A DNA stretch of 34,617 nt from the IMG/VR virus record IMGVR_UViG_2541047909_000003; one strand, written 5' to 3'. This DNA comes from a virus. Its lineage: Duplodnaviria; Heunggongvirae; Uroviricota; Caudoviricetes. The notes under the pieces are model-generated. The model saw only the letters and a program-made list of their open reading frames with translations. It did not search any database and was not told the origin of the DNA. Positions 3,948-30,255 of this stretch are shown in pieces; positions within the stretch are counted from its first letter, which is position 1; each line of letters begins with the position of its first letter. Position numbers and translations under genes: made by a program.

Positions 3948-6900
3948 TCAGCTAATCGTGATGCCTGCAGTGGCTTTCTTCATCACCACAACCAGCAAAT
4001 CGCTGATACTTGCTGTGGGATACCAGTTATTTACCAGCCATGCTGACACCGAAAACTCCAGTGTCATGTGACCGTGACCGGCAGGCATATCAATAACACC
4101 ACTGTAAATCAGCGTATTATCCAGCGCGGTACGGTTATAAATTTCAGCACCGTTTTTCCGCACTATCAGACGGCATGAGGAGTAAATATCAGTATGCTCT
4201 TTCTCATGTTTAGCGCCGCTGAATGCCACCGCCGGAATAACAATCTGCCGGTCAAACGGCTGATCGTCATAAACCCTGACGGTAATGGTTCCTGATGGCC
4301 ACCGCTCCGGTGCACGGGAGTCCCGGGGGAAAGCTTTGCCCACTGTTTTAACGAGATCGCCTTCAATCTGGTTCGCGGACAATTTTCCCAGAACCCGACA
4401 GTTCTCGTTAATCGTGACGTTGTTGAGCGTCCCGGAGTTCGCATTCACGTTACCGCTGATATCGGCATTTTTCGCCGTCAGCCGCCCGTCCGGTGTCAGG
4501 GAAAATGCCGGAGGATTACCGCCGCTGGTAATGGTCGGAGCCGTCAGGCGTTTCAGGAACACGTCGTTCATGAATATCTGATCGCCCTGACCAACAAACA
4601 TCGGCTTTGTGTTGCCATTCGCAGGATTAATCATCGCAATCCGGTCAGCAGCCAGAAGCACCTGACTCTGCATACCTGCTGGCGTATTCTCAATACCGAC
4701 TCCGATACCCGCAATATAAAGGCGTCCGTCCTTCATCTGCTGCAGTTTCACGGCCCACATGCTGTTCAGGTTATTATTTGTATCAACCTGAACTTTCTGT
4801 ATCTGCTGGATTGCCGCACTCTGGTCTTCCAGTTTTTTATTGACGGTCTGCGTGATTTCATTGCTGACATTCGTAATGGACGTCCTGATTTCAGCCAGGT
4901 CCGGCGCAAGCTGACCGTTATCAATCTGCGTCCACAACTCCTGGGCCAGATGTGTTTTCCCGATTTCTCCTTTGAAAAAATCCAGGTAACCTTCCGCATC
5001 ATCGCTCGCCCGACCGACAGCCTCCACGAATGCCGATTTGCCAACGGTGTTCACACTGCGAACGTAAAAATAATAATCATGGCCCGGTTTGATATTGATA
5101 CTGGCGGCTATCCAGTACAGCGCCGTACCAAGATAGCGGGCTGTGGTTTCAACCTGCCTGATATCGGTAATCCGCTTTTCTGAGAACCAGAACTCAAACT
5201 GTACCGTCGGGTCATAAACAGCAAGATGCGGCGTGGCGGTTATCTGAAAATAGCCCGGCGTCAGCTCAATCCGCGACGGTGCTGCCGGTGCGGCAATCCG
5301 GAAGGTGGTGGTGGCAGGTTCACCCTGCTGGCCATAGCTGTTTATCGCCCGCACCGTCAGGGTGTATTCCCCGAGCGGCAGGCCGCTGAAACGGTGCTCC
5401 GTGTCTGCGGTGATGGCGGTGGTCACCAGTCTGGCATCCGTTCCCTTACCACTGGTCAGGCGCAGACTGAAGCGCACGCCCTTCACCACCCGCGGCGTGT
5501 CCCATTTAGCCTGCGCCAGATACTGGCCGTCAGCTGCACTCACCTCCACCGTCAGGTGCTGTACTGCCGGTGGGATGACGCTGTTCAGGGAACCTGACTG
5601 CGGCTCAAAGCGGGCACCGTTATCCACGATGGCTTCTTTTTCCGGTACGTGCTGCACCGCCGTGATGGCAAAGGTGCCGTCCGTGTTTTCCCGGACGGAG
5701 ACACAGCGGAACAGGCGACGGCGCAGTGACGGCAGGGAGAGTCCCCACACCCCGTATGTCTCCACACCATCAGGCAGGGTACTGACCTGTATCCGGTCCG
5801 GCGCGGGGTGTGCGGTGATGTCCACACTCACCGGCTTACCGCTTCCGTTAATCAGGTTCACCGCCGATGTACCTGTCTCCGGCAGGGTAACCTCACGGTC
5901 CAGCGTCAGGGTGCGCGTGGCAGCATCAATGGACAGGACACGTCCGCCGGTCAGGGTCCCGGCATAGTCATTATCACAGATTTCAATAATGTCACCGGGT
6001 GTGTGCCGCAGCCCCTGAGACCCGAGCGTGAAATCCACCGTCTGCGTTTCCAGCAGTTCGGTCTTTATCACCCACAGTCCGGCACGGTGGGCCTGACCGC
6101 GGCTGGTACAGCCGAACGCGTCCATCTTCAGCAGGTTGCGTCCGTAGCGCAGTATGGCTTCCGGGTCTTCCACCAGTTCCGTGGAGGTCTGCCAGCCGTT
6201 CTGCGGGTCGGTGTAATTCACCTCCACCGCCGTGTGCCGGTCCTTCAGGGCACTGAAGCTGTAGCGGAATCCCACGCCGTTATCATCCACCACCACATCG
6301 CTGTTGGTGTACGGCCACACCACATCCGACGGGCGGTCCTGAACGAACGTCAGCGTCTGACCGTTCCATACCGGCATACAGCGCATCGCAGAGCAGAAAT
6401 CACTGAGAACGTCCCACGCCTTACGCTGTTGTGCCAGGTACGCATTAAAGGTCATCCGCGGCTCGGTCCCCCCGAAACCATCCGGGACCGTCTGGTCGCA
6501 GTACTGCCCGATGGCATACAGCGCCCACTTGTCCACATCCGCCGCCCCCAGACGTTTTCCCATGCCGTAGCGCGGGTGAGTCAGCATGTCCCACAGACAC
6601 CAGGCCGGGTTGTTGCTGTATGCCGGTTTCAGACTGCCGTCCCAGATACCACTATACGTGCGTTTTTCCGGGTCATAGTTTGACGGCACCTGGATGATGC
6701 GACCGCGGATATGGTAGTTCACCGTCATCTGCTGGCCGCCGAACTGCTCCGCATCCACCTGCAGCCCCACAATGGCCGTGTTCGGGTAGCACTGTTTCAC
6801 ATCGATGATTTCGGTGTATGACGACCACAGCGTCTTATTCTGCAGCTGGTCCGTGGTGCTGTCCGCCGTCTCCCTGACCATCCGGATGTTAAAGGGCCGG

Positions 6901-8444: not shown

Positions 8445-9085
8445 TTTTCGGAATACCTCTCCCGTTTACTCAGTTGTTCAGGCAGATGGTGAAGCAGCTC
8501 ACCGTTGCCGCAGTAAATGGCGGCATGGTTCGGTACCGAAGCACCAAAGCAGCACAGCAGAATATCGCCCGCCTGTGCAGAGGACAGGGGCACCCGGTAA
8601 AAGCCGGTGACCGCCATATTGTCCAGGTAAAGGTTCTGACCGTTGCGCCACCAGTCATCCTCGCGATGAAAATCCGGCATTTCAGTCCCCGCCAGATGAT
8701 AAGCATCCCGGAACAGCGTGTAACAGTCCGTCACCCCGTGCTCAAAGCGCCGTCCTGTCAGATGTGGTACACAGCGGAATTTGTGAATGTCACCCCGGCA
8801 GACCAGCCACCAGGGCAGTGCGCTTTTTATCTGCAGCCGCCGGTCAGCCTCGCTCAGCCAGGGCAGCCCACCGGGATGACTGTGGACCAGTGCCACAATC
8901 TCCCCCTGCATCTCTGCCCGCAGCCAGTCTTCCGGTGCGATACGAAAATACGCCTCCGGCTCTGCAGAAATATTCACACAAGGGATATACCACTCCCCCT
9001 CCGGCGTGCTTATCACGAAGCCGCACGACTCCGCAGGCGCACACCGCCGGGCATGCGCCAGAATCGCTGATTCAGTCTGTGTCAT
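8342..9085 (-). CDS. K: tail tip assembly protein K (JAB/MPN + NlpC/P60-like)
   Basis: Starts MTQTESAILAHARRCAPAESCGF; HSHPGG JAMM-like motif; overlaps I start by about 100 nt as in lambda; the 310-aa track ORF has a spurious N-terminal extension. Confidence 0.85.
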   Translation of the reverse strand: MTQTESAILAHARRCAPAESCGFVISTPEGEWYIPCVNISAEPEAYFRIAPEDWLRAEMQGEIVALVHSHPGGLPWLSEADRRLQIKSALPWWLVCRGDIHKFRCVPHLTGRRFEHGVTDCYTLFRDAYHLAGTEMPDFHREDDWWRNGQNLYLDNMAVTGFYRVPLSSAQAGDILLCCFGASVPNHAAIYCGNGELLHHLPEQLSKRERYSEKWQRRTHSVWRHRHWHASAFTGIYNDLAAASACM

Positions 9086-9297
9086 AAACCGGGATTTACT
9101 GCGAAAGTTTATTAATGGAAAGGAAACCGCCAAAATTGCCGACATTCCTGCGCAGTTCACACCCGCGCATGCACTTGCTGCATCTGTCCTTACGGATATC
9201 CGTGGTGGGGTTGTCGAACTCATCCGCCACCGCAGGACCGTTAAGGTGCGCCCCAGACGGAGCGCAAGTCGCATCAGAAAGCGAATTTCCGGGCGGG

Positions 9298-9672
9298 CTA
9301 CTTTTTTCTGGCCGACTCTGCATCAGCGATCAGTTCCAGTGCCTGACGCAGCAACCGGGCATGTACCGGACCATAGACGGCCAGCACCTGCTCACGGTCG
9401 TCCGGAGCGAACACCCGCTGCAGATCCGTATCACACAGGACATCGCAGAACAGCGTCACATCCGCTTCCAGGTTACGGCGGGTTTTCGCCACCACCGACA
9501 GGGTATCGTCATCCTCTCCATCACCATTGAGCACTTCCTGCCACAGATACCAGGCCTCTGCCGAAGGCTCCCGCAGCACCACGCTGACATTACCCCATTC
9601 CGGCACCTTCACCGTTTTATGACGAAACCCTGACAGTCTGGCCAGCGCCAGCGTTTTCAGATCCTTTTTCAT
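9298..9672 (-). CDS. putative tail assembly chaperone (G-like position)
   Basis: About 124 aa from MKKDLKTLALARLSGF; acidic C-terminus; sits immediately after major tail protein gene; no T frameshift extension or tape measure follows. Confidence 0.45.
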   Translation of the reverse strand: MKKDLKTLALARLSGFRHKTVKVPEWGNVSVVLREPSAEAWYLWQEVLNGDGEDDDTLSVVAKTRRNLEADVTLFCDVLCDTDLQRVFAPDDREQVLAVYGPVHARLLRQALELIADAESARKK

Positions 9673-9686
9673 GATGACCCATCCCC

Positions 9687-10403
9687 TTATCCGGCGGCTG
9701 CGCTCACTGTCACGGTGCATTCAACAGACGTCACACTCTGTGCTTTCTCTGCCGAATCGGTCACCACGCAGGTATATTTCCCCGCATCAGCGGACTGCGC
9801 ACCTGGCTTACTGAAGGTGTCTGTCGTCTGCCCGTCAACCGGCTGACCATCCTTCTTCCAGGCGTATTTATACGGCGGCGTTCCCCCGTTGGCACTGACT
9901 GACATTGTCAGCAGCGCACCTGTATTCACGGTAAGTGTTTTATCCAGATTTTTCACAAACGCCAGCGGTACCACAAAGGACACCAGTTTGCCTTTCATAC
10001 GCAGTGAAAACGTTGCTGCCACCACGCCGTTGGTACCGGATGACCAGGTGTGCTGACGCACTTCCGCCAGGAACTTAAAGCCCTTACCGGACGGAAACAG
10101 CACCTTAAACGCATACAACGCGTCATTGTCATAGGCATCACGCAGGGCGTTCTGGGCCTGATTCAGATAAAAATTACCCGACATGGAAATCTCAGACGAC
10201 GCCCCCAGACCGTTGATGTTCTCCTGCTCGGTGGAGCAGAGCGTGGTCACATCAATATCCTGTTTCTGACCGGCGGTGAACTGGACTTCCTTGATGGTGC
10301 AGTCCAGGCGCAGATATTCCGCCTTATCCATAGTTTCAGCAGTCGCCGGGGCAGATGAAATCATCACCTGCGTCAGCTGTGAGCGTTCATACAAAGCAGA
10401 CAT
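9687..10403 (-). CDS. major tail (tube) protein with C-terminal Ig-like domain
   Basis: 238 aa; strong AGGAGG RBS; C-terminal segment PPYKYAWKKDGQPVDGQTTDTFSKPGAQSADAGKYTCVVTD is Ig-like (Big_2-type). Confidence 0.75.
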   Translation of the reverse strand: MSALYERSQLTQVMISSAPATAETMDKAEYLRLDCTIKEVQFTAGQKQDIDVTTLCSTEQENINGLGASSEISMSGNFYLNQAQNALRDAYDNDALYAFKVLFPSGKGFKFLAEVRQHTWSSGTNGVVAATFSLRMKGKLVSFVVPLAFVKNLDKTLTVNTGALLTMSVSANGGTPPYKYAWKKDGQPVDGQTTDTFSKPGAQSADAGKYTCVVTDSAEKAQSVTSVECTVTVSAAAG

Positions 10404-12441: not shown

Positions 12442-12855
12442 TCACGCGGAACATGAATATGGCTTGAAGGCGTTGGCCGCCACCTCCACAGTCGGGGCCA
12501 GAATCGTGTAACCCGCCGCCTGCCGCCAGTTCAGTAACAGTGCAGTCATCATGATCCCCGCGGCCAGCGTGGACTTCGAGTTTTTCTTGGGGATAAGGAT
12601 AAAAACTTCCTTGATATGGCGTACACCGGTCTGCGCATCGTAGGAGCCAAACAGGGCCGCCACCAGGTCAAACACCCACGGTGCACAGGACTCCCCGAAC
12701 GTAGGGCTACCAGGTGCATCCACAATCCGCAGTTGTTTAAAAATCGCCAGGGCATGTGCGGCCTCGTCCGGATAAATCGGATCCGGAATAATCGACAGCC
12801 CCTTTTTCAGGCGCTCTGCCCAGTCCGGGCAGGCTGTGCTCCATACAGGTATCAT
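12442..12855 (-). pseudogene. terminase large subunit, N-terminal fragment only
   Basis: 137 aa containing ILIPKKNSKSTLAAGIMMTALLL (Walker-A-like TerL N-terminal region); ORF terminates far short of a full TerL (about 450-650 aa). Confidence 0.65.
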
Positions 12856-13415: not shown

Positions 13416-13705
13416 AGCCTCCTCCCGGGTCCAGAACGCACTCAGCCGGGTATGGTTCAGCCCATTTTTCCCGGCGTCTCATGCCGCAAATGTTAACTGC
13501 TGCCTGGTTAACATTTGCTGAAAAAGCCTGTTAACATTTTTTCCGCACAACAAACTGAATAATAAAGATAAAAACCGCAAAAATGCCCGGGCAGCCAGTT
13601 AACATGTTAACTGCCCTGAAACGGGAATTTTTTCTCTGCGTGAGAGGGGGCGCGGTGTCCAAAGCGATCGTTTTTTACGCCGGATGATACCCCCCCGGGG
13701 TCGGG
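13416..13705. other. putative cos / terminase recognition region
   Basis: Non-coding gap between HNH and TerS carrying 4-5 copies of ATGTTAAC-type motifs, including the 18-bp perfect palindrome cagttaacatgttaactg and a G-rich tract gagagggggcgcgg. Confidence 0.35.
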
Positions 13706-14071
13706 TTACAGTCCGATGATGTCGTCCTCTCTGCCACTACCTCCGGACACCTCCGGCAGCGTCGGGTCCGGCATATCACTCGCCGCTTCACGAGCAGACT
13801 TTTGTCGATGGCATTCGGTACAGAGCGTCCAGAGATTCGTCTCCTCATTACCACCACCGAACTGAAGTGCAATTCGGTGATCGAGTTCACTGTCACAGAG
13901 GTCAACCACACGACCACAGAGACGGCACTGCCCGGCGTCCCTGAGCCAGATATGACGCTTGAGGGAAACACGTGCACTGCCACTGACACGACGCTGTTCA
14001 CCCTTCAGAATATTCACCCGTCGGGTATTCAGTGTTTTGATTCTGCTCTGGAGTGTACGAAGCTCAGCCAT
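13706..14071 (-). CDS. HNH endonuclease (packaging-associated)
   Basis: 121 aa; CRLCGR...DHRIALQFGG..N...LCTECH HNH motif; immediately upstream of cos/TerS as in HK97-like phages. Confidence 0.85.
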   Translation of the reverse strand: MAELRTLQSRIKTLNTRRVNILKGEQRRVSGSARVSLKRHIWLRDAGQCRLCGRVVDLCDSELDHRIALQFGGGNEETNLWTLCTECHRQKSAREAASDMPDPTLPEVSGGSGREDDIIGL

Positions 14072-17171: not shown

Positions 17172-17387
17172 TTACTCTCCCCGTGCCGCCTTACGACGGT
17201 CCTCTCTGATTTTGAAATACAGGTTAGTCAGATATGTCAGCAGCCCAAACAGCAGACTCCCCAGCACGCCTATTGCCGCCCACTGAGACGGGGAAACCCT
17301 GTCCAGCAACTGCAGGAACCAGTAGCCCGTTCCCACCGCTGACGTGGTGTATGACACACCTGTTGTGATTTTTTCCATCTGGTACAT
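17172..17387 (-). CDS. S: pinholin, S21-like, with dual-start motif
   Basis: [71 protein letters not shown] closely matches phage 21 S; two Met three codons apart; the 97-aa track ORF has a spurious extension. Confidence 0.85.
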
Positions 17388-17537
17388 ACCCCGTCTCCCG
17401 TTATCCGGAAGCTGACAACAATAAAAAAAGCCACCAGTTAAGTACTGATGGCTCTGATAACTCATGCAGGCATCTCAGACGACCCACTGACACTACCGGT
17501 GAGTTTAACGATACCTTCCATTTGACTGGCTCACTTT

Positions 17538-19409
17538 TTATGATGATGCCGGTGCATTTATCTCCAGCACCAGACTTTCTATCTCAACGCCATACGCTGC
17601 ATTTTTGGTAATATCCGTCAGCGTCAGCGCATTCAGCCCCAGTGTCAGACTGTCTTTTATGACCTGGAATGCCGGGCCAGCCACTCCATTCAGTTTCGGA
17701 GTAACCGTGGCACTGCCGGCGGTGAACACCAGCTCCAGCGTCTGCCAGTCGTTACTGTAATTCCCGAACTCGCCCAACTTTGTGTTTCCGGCTTTCTTGT
17801 GATGCATCAGATTCAGTTTGCCGTCTGTGGTCTGGGTGAAGAACGACATCAGGAACGGGTTACCAGTCCCGGTCATCGCCACGACGTCAGGTAACGCTAC
17901 ATCGGTATACAGATAAATTCCCAGACCGAACTGGTTGTTGGTCAGTGCGCCTGACAGTCGAAACTTACAGCTCAGTCTGCCACCCCGTGTCAGCAGGGAG
18001 ACTGCGTCATCCACCGGATGCATCAGGGACCAGGTTTTATTGCTCTGCTTGGTAACCTTAAACACACCATCTTCCAGCGCAACACTGCCGCCGGTGATGG
18101 TCCAGCCCTGCGCAGCAGCCTCTCCGGCTGTCGGCAGCAGGGAGACTGTACGAACGGATGTGTCACCATCAGACGGCCCCGATGGCGTGTCGCCGCCGGG
18201 CGAGGGTTTAATCTCCGGTGCGGTACCGCTGATGAAGGCGCTGGTTCGACCAACTGCGTTCAGAATAGCGGTTGCCAGGCGATCCGAAATAATGCCCCTG
18301 CGCGCCCATGAACTGAAATGTGTCGGACGATTTGACGATACCCAATTACCATTACTACGGGATTGCGCGCCGTAATAACCTGCATCAGCAATATCCGGGT
18401 CTTCTGCCGGTAAGTTGGTGGGCGTGTTGTTGCCGTTACCGTCGGTCATGAACGGCACAAAGAAAACGTTGTCGCTCTCCCTGTTTTTGTACGCGCCGTA
18501 GACGGAGTCATACTGTGTGCCGTATGTGTTTTTCCAGTAATACGTCGTGTCGCCACAAATCCACGGTACAACTGCAGCACTGCCGCCATGGCACTGCGCG
18601 TTAAATCCGGAAAGGTCAGTACGGAACTGCTTCAGCATGGCCGTGAACAGGTCCGGTTGCTGTGCGTAGGTGGCAGCGCTCATGTCAAATTCCCCCTGCA
18701 TCCAGCATATCGCCAGCAAAACGTTTTTCGGGTTTTTCTGCAATGCTGCCTTCGTGCGGAAAAGCAGATCCTGATATAACGGCTTACCCACTCCCCAGCG
18801 AGCCGAATCCTGACTGGCCCCCGTGGACTCGCTGAATGTCCCCTCCGTGCCCTTGGTGAATGCCGAACCACCACGACAGCATGGTACCAGCAGGATCCCC
18901 GCATTATTAGGGATATACGGAAGCAGTTTTTTGGCAATATGTAAGCCCTGTCCGACACAACCGTACTGCCCTTTGCTCAGGTCAGCCCGGGGATGGTTAA
19001 TCGTACTCATATCCTGAACATCATGCAGACAATGGTCAGCAGGAATGATGTCGTTAAATACGCATACTTCGCCACCGGGAGTCACTGTGTTACGACGGGC
19101 CAGTTGCTTAATGCGCGGATGGGGCGCATCGTATGAATCCGGAAGCGGAAGCCCTTCACCGTAAGCCATGGCATTGGACTGCCCGGCCAGTACGATGACG
19201 TAGTACCACTCCGGCTCAGTTGCACCACTGACGACCACATCACCTTCTGCTGCAATCGCCTGCATCAGGGTATAAGGGGTTATGGCCACCGGACTACCAA
19301 ACGGCTGCCAGCCCTCTTTCAGTTTATGTGTCAGCTTTTCCGCAAGATCTGACGGCGACGCCGCCCTGACAACATCATAGTGTTTAAATGCCATGGTTCT
19401 TTCCACCAT
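17538..19409 (-). CDS. prophage sialate O-acetylesterase (NanS-p-like) with N-terminal DUF1737
   Basis: 623 aa; MAFKHYDVVRAASPSDLAEKL N-domain then VIVLAGQSNAMAYGEG esterase (SASA-like) motif; same position relative to lysis genes as in Stx phages. Confidence 0.8.
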   Translation of the reverse strand: MVERTMAFKHYDVVRAASPSDLAEKLTHKLKEGWQPFGSPVAITPYTLMQAIAAEGDVVVSGATEPEWYYVIVLAGQSNAMAYGEGLPLPDSYDAPHPRIKQLARRNTVTPGGEVCVFNDIIPADHCLHDVQDMSTINHPRADLSKGQYGCVGQGLHIAKKLLPYIPNNAGILLVPCCRGGSAFTKGTEGTFSESTGASQDSARWGVGKPLYQDLLFRTKAALQKNPKNVLLAICWMQGEFDMSAATYAQQPDLFTAMLKQFRTDLSGFNAQCHGGSAAVVPWICGDTTYYWKNTYGTQYDSVYGAYKNRESDNVFFVPFMTDGNGNNTPTNLPAEDPDIADAGYYGAQSRSNGNWVSSNRPTHFSSWARRGIISDRLATAILNAVGRTSAFISGTAPEIKPSPGGDTPSGPSDGDTSVRTVSLLPTAGEAAAQGWTITGGSVALEDGVFKVTKQSNKTWSLMHPVDDAVSLLTRGGRLSCKFRLSGALTNNQFGLGIYLYTDVALPDVVAMTGTGNPFLMSFFTQTTDGKLNLMHHKKAGNTKLGEFGNYSNDWQTLELVFTAGSATVTPKLNGVAGPAFQVIKDSLTLGLNALTLTDITKNAAYGVEIESLVLEINAPASS

Positions 19410-19654
19410 CTGAAAAATGATTCTTTAAAATACCTGACATGTAATACAGAAAAAAAACAAAACCATACCTTAAATAAAAACCTCATCATCAAGCAGATAT
19501 GCATGGATAAACTACAAGACGAGATATAAACCACCCTGCATTTAAATAAACAATAAACAACATCAGAAAAATAATTCTGCTCTATGGTTTACAATCAAAA
19601 ATATCATTTATACTTTTCAGAACATCACCAGCAAGGCATAAACAAGGAAACTAA

Positions 19655-19990
19655 ATGAAGTGGATTGTGATTGATACAGTTATCCAGCCATCATGCGGAA
19701 TATCTTTTTCAGTCATATGGAGTAAAATAAAATTAATAATCTGGTATCAATCGGATGCTTTCTTACCTCCTGAAAGTATATTTACACTGACTCACACAGG
19801 CATCATGCTCAATAACAAAGTGCTACCTGTAACCATTTACAACGTAGTGCCATTCAATAAAACATTCTGGAATTTAATCAAAAACAGCCAGGAATGCCCT
19901 ACAAATACAGATAACGTATTGAATGAATGCTTTAATAACCGTTGCACTCTGCAAATATGTCCTTATGGACTAAAACAACAAAGTCCATAA
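19655..19990 (+). CDS. hypothetical AT-rich, Cys-containing protein (111 aa), antisense to late operon
   Basis: AAGGAA RBS about 7 nt upstream of ATG; strongly AT-rich codon usage unlike neighbours; C-terminal cluster [26 protein letters not shown]; stop lies in an 11-bp stem-loop. Confidence 0.45.
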
Positions 19991-20021
19991 GGAGTTTACT
20001 CACATCTGACAAAATCAATAT

Positions 20022-20048
20022 AAACAGCCCCTCCGGAGAGGGGCTGGA
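20022..20048 (-). terminator. terminator-like hairpin (minus-strand orientation)
   Basis: cagcccctc-cgga-gaggggctg 9-bp stem followed by T/A-rich tract on minus strand. Confidence 0.4.
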
Positions 20049-20411
20049 GAGTGGCGCTATGTGCCATTGCATGGTGCCGGGTGCCTCCCGGTGAATTCAG
20101 TACCAGCACCTGAATCCGCGATTATCCCATATACCTACTCGCTGATTGCCCCTCCGCACAGGGGGATTCACCATGCGATGTAATTTTTAACAAATTCTCC
20201 GGCAGCCAGACAATCATCAAGCTGTGGAATTGTGAGGTATTTAAAAATTTCAACGGGTAACTGATACCCTGCTAATCGCCTGATGCTTTCTTTTTCAGCA
20301 ACGGGAAAGCAACAACCACACACCCGCCACCAAAACACCATCAGACAGCACCGACATTATCCGGCTGCTGAAGTCCACCATCACCACCAGAAACAACAGG
20401 AGTGCAACCAC

Positions 20412-20456
20412 AGCTGCTTAGAAGGCAATTGCTCTGTCCGGCTGAGCTAACAACGC
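20412..20456 (-). pseudogene. truncated tRNA-Arg(UCU)-like remnant
   Basis: Acceptor 5' strand, D-arm (GCTCAGCCGGACAGAGC) and anticodon arm with CTTCTAA loop present, but no T-arm or matching 3' acceptor strand. Confidence 0.4.
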
Positions 20457-20469
20457 ATGATGCAGATAA

Positions 20470-20546
20470 TGGACCGCCATCGGGGACTTGAACCCCGCGC
20501 AGCCAGCTTCGAAGGCTGGCGCTCTATCCCGATGAGCTAATGGCGG
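20470..20546 (-). tRNA. tRNA-Arg (anticodon UCG)
   Basis: Full cloverleaf by hand-fold: 7-bp acceptor stem, D-arm, anticodon loop CTTCGAA, T-arm CGGGG-TTCAAGT-CCCCG, encoded CCA. Confidence 0.8.
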
Positions 20547-20553
20547 TATGTGA

Positions 20554-20629
20554 TGGTGGCCCTTGCTGGATTTGAACCAGCGACCTGGCGATTATGAGTC
20601 GCTCGCTCTCACCACTGAGCTAAAGGGCC
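20554..20629 (-). tRNA. tRNA-Ile2 (anticodon CAU, lysidine-type; ileX/ileZ-like)
   Basis: Full cloverleaf; anticodon loop CTCATAA; body nearly identical to E. coli ileX as recalled; encoded CCA. Confidence 0.85.
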
Positions 20630-20678: not shown

Positions 20679-21728
20679 TCAAACGATTAAATCCTGAACT
20701 TCCCTGACTGTCTGCTCAAAACGTCCGGTCTCCAGTTCAACGCCAATCGCACGACGCCCGAGCGCCAGTGCCGCTTTTACCGTTGAACCTGAGCCCATAA
20801 AAAAATCTGCAACCAGGTCACCCGGACGACTGCTTGCGCTGATTATCTGCTGCAGCATTTCTGCCGGTTTTTCGCACGGATGTTTCCCGGGATAGAACTG
20901 CACCGGTTTATGTGTCCACACATCCGTGTACGGCACCTGCGCCGTCACACCAAAATACCGCCGCAGATGCTTATATTCACTCTGCAGCTCCACATACTGC
21001 CGGTTCAGTGACGTATACGTATCCACCAGCTGGTGGTGGGGCTTTTCCAGTTCACCGCGCTGATGTTTCTCTTCTGCCACCCGGGCAAACAGCGACTGTA
21101 ATTTCAGATAATCGCTTTCGTTCGGTAGCTGCCACTGACTGGCACTGAACCAGTGCGACACCATGTTTTTCTTTCCTGTGGCATCTGCAATCTGTTTTGC
21201 CGTTATCCCCAGGGCCGCGCGCGCATCACGAAAGTAAGAAATCAGCGGGGCCATCACATGCTGTTTCAGTGCACTGCCCTTCGCCGCATACCCGGCATCT
21301 TTCGGACGATACGGCCCCTGATAATGTTCCGCGAACAGAATGCGCTCTGTGGCGGGGAAATACGCCCGCAGGCTTTCCTTGTTGCATCCGTTCCAGCGTC
21401 CGGACGGCTTCGCCCAGATAATATGGTTCAGCACACTGAAGCGTTCACGCATCATGATTTCGATATCAGATGCCAGGCGATGACCACAGAACAGGTAAAG
21501 ACTTCCGGCAGGTTTCAGCACCCGCCAGAACTGCGCCAGACACTGGTCCAGCCACTTCAGGTAATCATCGTCGCCCTTCCACTGGTTATCCCAGCCCTCA
21601 GGCTTCACTTTAAAGTACGGCGGGTCCGTGACTATCAGGTCAACAGAATTTTCGGGTAACGACCGGATAAATTCCAGGCAGTCGGCGTTGATTAACTCAC
21701 AACTGGATATTTTTACAGTATTAAGCAT
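20679..21728 (-). CDS. orphan DNA methyltransferase (N6-adenine/N4-cytosine class)
   Basis: 349 aa; DPPY catalytic motif near N-terminus and FMGSGST AdoMet-binding motif near C-terminus; no restriction endonuclease gene adjacent. Confidence 0.85.
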   Translation of the reverse strand: MLNTVKISSCELINADCLEFIRSLPENSVDLIVTDPPYFKVKPEGWDNQWKGDDDYLKWLDQCLAQFWRVLKPAGSLYLFCGHRLASDIEIMMRERFSVLNHIIWAKPSGRWNGCNKESLRAYFPATERILFAEHYQGPYRPKDAGYAAKGSALKQHVMAPLISYFRDARAALGITAKQIADATGKKNMVSHWFSASQWQLPNESDYLKLQSLFARVAEEKHQRGELEKPHHQLVDTYTSLNRQYVELQSEYKHLRRYFGVTAQVPYTDVWTHKPVQFYPGKHPCEKPAEMLQQIISASSRPGDLVADFFMGSGSTVKAALALGRRAIGVELETGRFEQTVREVQDLIV

Positions 21729-22302: not shown

Positions 22303-23124
22303 CTATCGCGTTACCCTCTTTAACTGCCGCTCCGCCCATGCCTCTTCAATGTCAAACCGAACCACCAACGTATCGTAAAAGCGTTTCACTGATTTTTTCC
22401 ACGTATCAAGCGTGATAGCACTCGTCACTTTGCATATGGCATTAAATGCCTCCGTTGATGGCAGCCTTTCACAGCCACGACCACCACAACGCTGGCAGTC
22501 TCTGATAACAGGCATACCACGTTTTACCGACTCTTCACGATGAATGGCGACACCACGCCCACGGCAATCCTTACAGGCGGTGGAAACCTCACCCTTTCCG
22601 CCACACTCCGGACAGGCAACTTTTACCACCTCCCTGACTTTTTTCCATTCTTCCCAGTAAGACGGATACACGCCTTTTGTGCACTTTGCCCACACTGGTG
22701 GCTTACCATCCGGATACTGGATCTTGTTTGTAAAAACCTCGCTTTCAATAAATTTTTTTCCGTGACAGCAGGGGCACTGTTTTTTGCTCGCCGCGCTACG
22801 GGCATAATCTTCAAACGCATACGAAGCCATAATGCGCATCACTACCGGTTTTATTTCTGCCGGAAGTTTTCTCAACGCCGCCACACGATCGCACCGACTG
22901 AGTGCATAATCTGCCAGTAATTCTGTTGCCCGCGCCCTGTCATTCATACTGATGCCCATTTTCCCCAGGAACGCAGAAAAACCCATCTCAGCCCGATTCT
23001 GTGTCATGCCCTGCGCGGCCATCACATCAGTGATACTCAGCGCATCTTTTGACGTTGAGGCCGATGCATCGGTCAGGCCGGGGGATTTTGGGGAGTAGTA
23101 TTTCGGTAAATCTTCCAGTTTCAT
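22303..23124 (-). CDS. Q: antitermination protein Q (long, zinc-finger-containing type)
   Basis: 273 aa with several CxxC pairs (CPCCHGK, CPECGGKG, CKDCRGRG, CQRCGGRG); followed by pR'/tR'; preceded by rusA. Confidence 0.8.
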   Translation of the reverse strand: MKLEDLPKYYSPKSPGLTDASASTSKDALSITDVMAAQGMTQNRAEMGFSAFLGKMGISMNDRARATELLADYALSRCDRVAALRKLPAEIKPVVMRIMASYAFEDYARSAASKKQCPCCHGKKFIESEVFTNKIQYPDGKPPVWAKCTKGVYPSYWEEWKKVREVVKVACPECGGKGEVSTACKDCRGRGVAIHREESVKRGMPVIRDCQRCGGRGCERLPSTEAFNAICKVTSAITLDTWKKSVKRFYDTLVVRFDIEEAWAERQLKRVTR

Positions 23125-24998: not shown

Positions 24999-25154
24999 TT
25001 ACTCCTCAGGTTCGTAAGCTGTGAAGACAGCGACCTCCGTCTGGCCGGTTCGGAGTCGTACCTCGCAGAGGTCTTTCCTCGTTACCAGTGCCGTCACTAT
25101 GACGGTTAAACAGATGACGATCAGGGCGATTAACATCGCCTTTTGCTGCTTCAT
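24999..25154 (-). CDS. hok: Hok/Gef-family type I toxin
   Basis: MKQQKAMLIALIVICLTVIVTALVTRKDLCEVRLRTGQTEVAVFTAYEPEE, near-identical to HokD/RelF as recalled. Confidence 0.85.
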   Translation of the reverse strand: MKQQKAMLIALIVICLTVIVTALVTRKDLCEVRLRTGQTEVAVFTAYEPEE

Positions 25155-25330
25155 AGCCTGCTTCCCCTTGCCTTTCGGCACGTAAGAGGCTAACCTACAT
25201 TTGTGAGACATAGATTGGGCCTCAGATTAATGTTAAGCGTCTTGCAGGACGCGAAATGTTAACTGGGGCTTTTCTCTATCTGCCTTTCAGTGTTCATGCC
25301 TGAGACAGATAGCCTCAAGCACCCGCAGCC
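25155..25330. promoter_or_regulatory. hok leader with predicted antisense sok RNA and fold-back elements
   Basis: Leader contains inverted segments (gcttgaggctatctgtctcaggcatg) typical of hok mRNA structure; exact sok ends not determined. Confidence 0.35.
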
Positions 25331-26657: not shown

Positions 26658-26697
26658 AAGCCCTCCTGAAAATTACCTCATGACCAGAAATTAACAC

Positions 26698-29688: not shown

Positions 29689-30255
29689 TAGCTAACCAAC
29701 GAAGCTAAGGTTGGTAATTAAGGAGTTCTCCACGGATGAGGTGGAGTGCGTGCGCCGGACACGGGTGAGCATCCGGCACAGACAGTTTACTGAAAGGATA
29801 TTTCCCTGAAAGGTCAGACCATAACGCGAAAGCGCACGGCGAGGTAGCTGGTTCATAGATAGCCTGTCGTTAAATTTTCGTCGACCGTGCGCTTCCGGTT
29901 GTGGCAATCCGCGAAATGGCGCGGCGGTGAGTATGGCGGGGTTATTCCTTCCCCGTTGAGGACACCGGGTTGTCAGGTTGACCATACGCTTAAGTGACAA
30001 CCCCGCTGCAACGCCCTCTGTTATCAATTTTCTGGTGACGTTTGGCGGTATCAGTTTTACTCCGTGACTGCTCTGCCGCCCTTTTTAAAGTGAATTTTGT
30101 GATGCGGTGAATGCGGCTGAGCGCACGCGGAACAGTTAAAACCAAAAACAGTGTTATGGGTGGATTCTCTGTATCCGGCGTTAATTGTTAACTGGTTAAC
30201 GTCACCTGGAAGCACCAGGCACCGCATCACAAAATTCATTGTTGAGGACGCGATA

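Follow-up and report, generated by a model that had tools for sequence, protein, structure and literature searches.

Prophage iraL between STnc100 and nanS-p: a known RssB anti-adaptor gene in a putative recurrent cargo slot

The lambdoid prophage of IMG/VR record IMGVR_UViG_2541047909_000003 (Caudoviricetes), analyzed here as one stretch of 34,617 nucleotides (nt) that we call the window, carries a single open reading frame (ORF) of 111 amino acids (aa) in an AT-rich segment next to the sialate esterase gene nanS-p, on the strand opposite to the late genes. We identify this ORF, with high confidence, as iraL (coding sequence 19655-19990, + strand, ATG start): a cargo gene, or "moron," of the prophage, with its own promoter, encoding an IraM-family anti-adaptor that acts on RssB and stabilizes RpoS. 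The predicted protein is the same as IraL of Escherichia coli CFT073 (WP_000871291.1) at 111 of 111 residues; for this comparison we used the CFT073 prophage beside potB, where iraL lies at 13465-13800 of the extracted locus (L004). It matches the NCBIfam model NF007393 over positions 1-113 of 114, with 162 bits against a curated cut-off of 121 (E = 4.7e-48), and is 62% identical over 107 aa to IraM of E. coli K-12. RefSeq genomes with the same DNA annotate the ORF as "anti-adapter protein IraM." A preliminary description of this DNA, made from its letters alone, had noted the AT-rich segment, the lone reverse ORF of 111 aa, its good ribosome-binding site (RBS) and its cysteine cluster, all of which can be seen in the sequence, and had taken the gene to be separately acquired cargo of unknown function. 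Because the protein is identical to IraL, which has been tested in CFT073, a toxin or a cargo of unknown function is ruled out, and we dropped that reading. The gene is real, and it is already known: it was named and tested in 2014, and the NCBI annotation pipeline labels it as a member of the IraM family.

What IraL does has been established with the identical protein, and the statements below on RssB binding and on the half-life of RpoS come from that literature; identity, promoter, fold, interface contacts, spread and selection were computed here. Deletion of iraL halves the half-life of RpoS in log phase, and complementation from the gene's own promoter restores it (PMC4045071). IraL binds RssB in a two-hybrid assay, and cloned iraL raises RpoS in K-12; in all, RssB binding or RpoS stabilization by the identical protein has been documented in CFT073, Shigella sonnei and K-12 (PMC4045071). 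IraL levels are also increased in a CFT073 fur mutant (PMC7157518). Applied to the window, these data suggest that iraL, transcribed from its own sigma-70 promoter (start at 19622) and counter to the late operon, could be expressed in the lysogen. IraL would then bind the response-regulator-like adaptor RssB, RpoS would not be delivered to the ClpXP protease, and the more stable RpoS would prime the general stress regulon even in exponential growth.

Structure prediction leads to the same family. Residues 1-78 of IraL match the IraM chain of Protein Data Bank entry 8twd (8twd_A) with E = 9e-32. Searching 1.84 billion representative proteins with a profile brought up 93 relatives, 39 of which formed the alignment used for AlphaFold. 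With this diverse alignment, the model reached a mean predicted local distance difference test score (pLDDT) of 85.7, exceeding 90 for residues 1-80; with 16 close homologs the score had been 54.8 and the model unusable, so that the diverse alignment mended the core, not the tail. Foldseek superposes the model on 8twd_A with a template modeling (TM) score of 0.90 and a root-mean-square deviation of 1.3 Å over 78 columns (E = 6.5e-9), and the next-best matches in the Protein Data Bank are three PmrD structures (4hn7, 2jso and 2rqx). The model thus predicts for IraL the PmrD-like beta-barrel-plus-helix fold of IraM, in agreement with the published IraM fold (PMC10844676). Fourteen IraM residues, in clusters I-III, are reported to contact RssB, and IraM covers the face of RssB that binds RpoS (PMC10844676). 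Ten of these 14 residues are identical in IraL, the changes being T13S, H63N, I64V and L75I. The check by homology and structure prediction that the preliminary description had proposed is answered concordantly by NF007393, 8twd and the AlphaFold model, which agree on the IraM family.

The gene is preceded by an AT-rich intergenic region (19410-19654, between the nanS-p start and iraL; GC content 0.290), which holds its promoter and 5' untranslated region (UTR). The CFT073 iraL mRNA begins, by rapid amplification of 5' cDNA ends (5'-RACE), with the sequence ACATCACCAGCAAGGCATAAACAAGGAAACCA (PMC4045071), and 31 of its 32 bases recur in the window, beginning at 19622. Matched to the published 5'-RACE, transcription would start at 19622 (+ strand) and leave a 5' UTR of 33 nt (19622-19654), equal in length to the UTR in the complementing iraL clone, which covers -100 to +33 (PMC4045071). 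The RBS, AAGGAA (19644-19649, + strand), lies 5 nt before the iraL ATG. We infer that TATACT (19609-19614, + strand), 7 nt upstream of the mapped transcription start, is the likely -10 hexamer; it aligns with TATAAT upstream of the iraL paralog of phage 1717, a phage encoding Shiga toxin (Stx) of type Stx2c. TTTACA at 19588-19593 is a possible -35 element, with a short spacer of 15 nt. A site called at 19547-19575 (+ strand) by a generic promoter scan was set aside in favor of the experimentally mapped start. In alignment, the DNA upstream of iraL is near-identical to that of CFT073. The region upstream of the Stx2c-phage paralog shows only patchy similarity to 19410-19654, and phage 933W has no counterpart of this intergenic stretch. 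The same region includes, at 19543-19559, a direct repeat that resembles a PhoP box and whose reverse complement, TGTTTAttgttTATTTA, departs from the consensus at one position; the repeat lies 63-79 nt before the iraL transcription start. The phage 1717 paralog has a similar element at the corresponding position of its own upstream region, and equally good matches occur in 4.9% of dinucleotide shuffles of the same AT-rich region; we mention the repeat as a weak lead and make no claim for it.

The gene is widespread and appears to be kept by selection. The iraL promoter and gene are found at an identity of at least 90% in 1445 of 5426 complete E. coli genomes, in one to three copies per genome. 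A locus search with an alignment of closer relatives yielded seven loci, and the context from Q through nanS-p to the holin gene was the same at every locus examined (CFT073, IPCEC42, Escherichia albertii and another E. coli). Among iraL, K-12 iraM and the phage paralog, the ratio of nonsynonymous to synonymous substitution rates (dN/dS) is 0.10-0.14 (0.12-0.14 for iraL against its paralogs), with synonymous sites near saturation, values which indicate that iraL is maintained under purifying selection and is not a degraded remnant. The preliminary description had named an unconserved ORF in a degraded region as the outcome that would speak against a cargo gene, and the opposite was found. A prophage gene that stabilizes RpoS, carried by about a quarter of complete E. 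coli genomes, would alter the general stress response of its host.

Two hairpins had been described beside the gene, and both exist, in altered form. The first (19960-19993, + strand) pairs 19960-19971 with 19982-19993 around a loop of 10 nt, and the iraL stop codon, TAA at 19988-19990, does lie inside its 3' arm; the stem has 12 base pairs (bp), not the 11 first given. Its folding energy is -17.5 kcal/mol (z = -4.5), and none of 200 shuffled sequences folds as well. Five of the 12 stem pairs are GC, the tail is GUUUACUCAC, and a terminator scan did not call the hairpin. Because no U-tract follows it, we judge from its sequence that it is not a canonical intrinsic terminator. The hairpin is specific to iraL, and CFT073 and strain AF44 (locus L001) have it without change. 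Its 3' arm falls within a stretch of 28 nt that is absent from the phage 1717 paralog; this stretch repeats the PYGL codons in inverted form and gives the protein its extra residues QQSP. K-12 iraM has instead an ordinary terminator, about 60 nt 3' of its stop codon. The second hairpin, placed by the preliminary description at about 20024-20045, is present at 20025-20046 (- strand), with a stem of 9 bp (seven GC pairs) and a loop of 4 nt, and belongs outside the insert. It folds with -24.2 kcal/mol on the + strand and -20.8 kcal/mol on the - strand, and only on the - strand is its stem followed by a T-rich tail (TTTATATTGA).

This second hairpin stands at the 3' end of a gene for STnc100, a known family of prophage small RNAs (sRNAs). 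The gene (20016-20206, - strand) matches Rfam RF02076 over its full length (1-206 of 206) with 133.7 bits, against a gathering score of 47 (E = 1.8e-29); it is part of the phage backbone and converges on iraL. From its position and tail, and from a stem that is identical in phage 1717, the second hairpin is recognizable as the STnc100 terminator and not as part of the cargo. STnc100 also follows stx2B in 933W (207.7 bits) and stx2cB in phage 1717 (158.5 bits), and lies beside iraL in CFT073 (132.4 bits). A 57-aa ORF (20168-20341, - strand) overlaps the 5' part of STnc100; its homolog in phage JLK-2012 is annotated as TciB.

Gene order around STnc100 clarifies what kind of slot iraL occupies. 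In 933W the order is tRNAs, stx2A, stx2B, STnc100, AsxR (reverse) and nanS-p; in the Stx2c phage 1717 it is stx2cA, stx2cB, STnc100, an IraM-like gene (reverse, its product 75% identical to IraL) and nanS-p; in the window and in CFT073 it is tRNAs, STnc100, iraL (reverse) and nanS-p. The annotated gene order of the Stx2a phage Stx2_EH2201 is the same as in phage 1717, a comparison made by annotation only. Homology between the window and 933W breaks off immediately after the STnc100 terminator and is found again from the start codon of nanS-p (17538-19409, - strand; 623 aa, a SASA-family sialate esterase with Pfam domains DUF1737, SASA and DUF6645), which forms the downstream boundary of the slot. 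In both 933W and phage 1717, stx2AB lies upstream of STnc100, whereas iraL lies downstream of it. For this reason iraL is not in the stx slot, as had been proposed, and by gene order its place is the next one downstream, after the STnc100 terminator and before nanS-p, where 933W has AsxR. The finding of AsxR, iraL or a third IraM paralog in this stretch suggests that it is a recurrent slot for reverse-oriented cargo. From the layout, the STnc100 terminator would keep transcripts of the tRNA region out of iraL in the lysogen, and after induction Q-antiterminated late transcription would cross iraL in antisense.

Composition sets the segment apart as well. Positions 19410-20024 (615 bp, adjoining nanS-p) have a GC content of 0.322, against 0.518 for the whole window and 0.55 for nanS-p. 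The iraL ORF has a GC content of 0.348, and its GC content at third codon positions is 0.35, compared with 0.60 in nanS-p. The late operon is on the - strand and iraL, on the + strand, is opposed to it. The earlier claim of separate acquisition is consistent with this composition and orientation and with the sharp homology boundaries against 933W, and the gene brings its own promoter. The interval from tRNA-Arg to nanS-p measures 1060 bp, about half of which is filled by iraL and the one sRNA gene. No ORF of at least 40 aa between tRNA-Arg and nanS-p is long enough for stxA or stxB, a statement based on ORF length, with no homology search made for stx.

A further feature of IraL is its C-terminal tail. 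The protein has five cysteines, C14, C81, C92, C97 and C102, of which the last four form the motif CP-x9-C-x4-C-x4-CP (codons 81-102; 19895-19960, + strand). Among 17 close relatives, C81, C92, C97 and C102 are invariant and C14 is often a serine. Across 39 family representatives, reaching down to about 20% identity, only W72, C81, C97 and C102 are fully invariant, with C92 and P103 each present in 38 of the 39. The four cysteines and W72 are among the best conserved positions of the family, and elsewhere the tail varies more than the core does (mean column entropy 2.88 versus 2.30). Of 66 relatives with 100-175 aa, 54 have the motif, and most of the others look frameshifted or truncated. In the AlphaFold model, the tail has a pLDDT of 58-70. 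The solved IraM structure is without residues 79-107, the full-length protein being proteolyzed, and the tail was described as less conserved and flexible; the structural paper makes no mention of cysteines or zinc (PMC10844676). In the literature we searched, we found no work on the C-terminal cysteines of the IraL/IraM family. The four-cysteine tail is a signature of this family that the structural work does not cover. As a tentative proposal, to which we give somewhat less than even chances, C81, C92, C97 and C102 might together bind a metal or sense redox state, as a module on which the stability or activity of IraL/IraM anti-adaptors depends. In that case, a signal such as metal availability or oxidation would influence how stable RpoS is by way of the anti-adaptor protein, and not through its transcription alone.

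Several observations weigh against an effect of iraL on RpoS in the source strain, and they would fit together if the gene were intact and silent, held down by H-NS as a passenger of a decaying cryptic prophage. Relative to the closest intact prophage (E. coli IPCEC42, locus L010), the window is without about 4.4 kb containing the tail tape measure gene and its neighbors (at ~9230-9243), about 5.2 kb containing the portal and major capsid genes and part of the large terminase gene (at 12461-12465), and about 1.5 kb of the replication region (at 26666-26694), and the prophage is probably defective. Near the promoter, three bases differ from CFT073, one just 3' of the possible -35 element, one at -1 and one at +31; the second iraL copy of strain JJ1886 has a -35 variant whose consequence is not known (PMC4045071). 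The promoter region in the window is strongly AT-rich, as given above (GC content 0.29). DNA of 29-35% GC is of the kind that H-NS silences. Because of the three base changes near the promoter and this H-NS-prone composition, we are cautious about expression in the source strain, which is inferred. Against a silent gene, the protein matches that of the functional CFT073 allele at every residue; the -10 hexamer, transcription start and RBS are unaltered from CFT073; the CFT073 gene is expressed and functional despite a truncated flanking nanS-p; and the paralogs are under purifying selection. We consider silence unlikely, and retain the reading of iraL as an anti-adaptor gene that acts on RpoS.

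The other two alternatives concern what the protein is. Its resemblance to PmrD raises the question of whether it could be a connector whose target is a different response regulator from RssB, as it would be if it protected phospho-PmrA. PmrD (PF11183), which connects PhoPQ with PmrAB, shares the small beta-barrel-plus-helix fold with IraL, and both bind a receiver-domain protein (PMC10844676). The match of the IraL model to 4hn7 (E = 6.6e-4, TM 0.73), with those to 2jso and 2rqx, speaks for such a connector, as do the precomputed PF11183.15 (PmrD) labels on every member of the IraM family. However, IraL and PmrD are only 14-20% identical; the local Pfam model PF11183.13 finds neither IraL nor IraM at E values up to 10, while scoring PmrD itself with 159 bits, and a later version of Pfam has evidently widened the PmrD family to take in IraM. 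Moreover, PmrD targets PmrA, not RssB, and is without the four-cysteine tail, and the protein identical to ours binds RssB and stabilizes RpoS (PMC4045071). A role as a PmrD-type connector is in our view very improbable. The proposal of the preliminary description, a possibly toxic cargo of unknown function that replaces stx at the stx locus, could point to the shared interval from the tRNAs to nanS-p, the foreign composition and the reverse orientation. As stated it is refuted, and we give it next to no credence: the function of the protein is known (PMC4045071), stx lies upstream of STnc100 and iraL downstream, and Stx2c and some Stx2a phages carry an IraM-family gene beside stx2, so that the two are not alternatives for one slot. 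The identification of the gene as iraL, an RssB anti-adaptor gene in a slot of its own, remains the reading that we favor.

In the late region, on the - strand, the antiterminator gene Q (22303-23124, Pfam Antiterm), a DNA methylase gene (20679-21728), two tRNA genes predicted by ARAGORN (one with a CAT anticodon at 20554-20629 and tRNA-Arg(TCG) at 20470-20546), nanS-p and a P21-type holin gene (17172-17465) succeed one another, with a DUF1327 gene after the holin. Terminator-like sites on the - strand downstream of Q (22220-22205 and 21892-21875) are compatible with tR', as the preliminary description had it. The tRNA region is 92% identical to that of 933W. The tRNA with the CAT anticodon is called tRNA-Met by ARAGORN, and its homolog is annotated as tRNA-Ile (ileZ type) in RefSeq relatives and in 933W. 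The window has two phage tRNAs, 933W and CFT073 three. Near 20368-20415 many relatives have about 470-570 bp of extra DNA between the DUF3927 region and tRNA-Arg; BLAST matches of relatives are broken in two at this site, where E. coli IPCEC42 (L010) has 22498-23067. Rfam also finds a sok antitoxin RNA (25149-25324, - strand; 120.5 bits), at whose position relatives have an annotated hokD, and a DicF sRNA (30030-30081, + strand; 76.7 bits), near which relatives annotate dicB.

The system nearest to that of the window is iraL of CFT073 (formerly ycgW; Hryckowian et al. 2014, PMC4045071), which has the same protein, the same promoter and UTR and the same prophage context of Q, tRNAs, STnc100, reverse iraL, nanS-p and holin. 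Besides the three base changes in the promoter and UTR region, the differences lie in the surroundings: nanS-p is truncated in CFT073 and intact (623 aa) in the window, and Q is followed in CFT073 by three tRNAs and an IS200, in the window by a DNA methylase gene and two tRNAs. The comparison of the same locus in related prophages, which the preliminary description had proposed, finds iraL kept in CFT073, IPCEC42, E. albertii and another E. coli, with a paralog in phage 1717 and AsxR in 933W. IraM of K-12 (b1160; structure 8twd), an anti-adaptor of Mg2+ starvation, shares the fold and the four-cysteine tail with IraL, which has the four residues QQSP in addition. Only the coding sequences of K-12 iraM and iraL are homologous (about 70% at the DNA level); their promoters and flanks are unrelated, and no shared flanks were found between the two loci. 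K-12 iraM lies just outside the annotated e14 prophage and not in a Q-to-lysis region, 268 bp beyond the annotated end of e14 (8681-10108 of locus L003) and beside ycgX. DUF1398 genes like ycgX occur in lambdoid prophages too, an example being ydfO of the CFT073 prophage; the K-12 region may be the remnant of another prophage. The two anti-adaptors are reported to differ in the conditions that induce them and in the RssB domains that they contact, and RssC of Salmonella to form one family with them at 47-49% identity (PMC4045071); no protein came up under the name RssC in our searches. The manner in which IraL binds RssB may differ from that seen in 8twd and is not simply to be copied from it.

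Within the cargo slot itself, the counterparts of iraL are of two kinds. AsxR, the anti-sRNA of 933W and Sp5 (Rfam RF02703; 4985-5037 of locus L005), has the place and the reverse orientation of iraL; it is an RNA of 53 nt where iraL encodes a protein, and the iraL insert shows no similarity to it in sequence. The IraM-like gene of Stx2c and some Stx2a phages (for example phage 1717 gp43, phage 2851 and Stx2_EH2201; 4501-4824 of locus L008 in phage 1717 and 4001-4324 of locus L009 in Stx2_EH2201) occupies the slot in the orientation of iraL and adjoins stx2; its product has 107 aa and lacks QQSP, and the gene is without the stop-codon hairpin. In total, 46 phage records encode a relative of IraL, 41 of them at 60-80% identity and nearly all of these from Stx2c or Stx2a phages; the gene is unannotated in most of the phage records listed, and no paper on the IraM-family gene of Stx phages was found in the literature searched. 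Beyond the annotations and papers that we checked, our analysis adds only the architecture of the slot, the IraM paralog beside stx2c and the invariant four-cysteine tail. Beside the toxin genes, this unstudied IraM paralog would tie Stx lysogeny to the control of RpoS.

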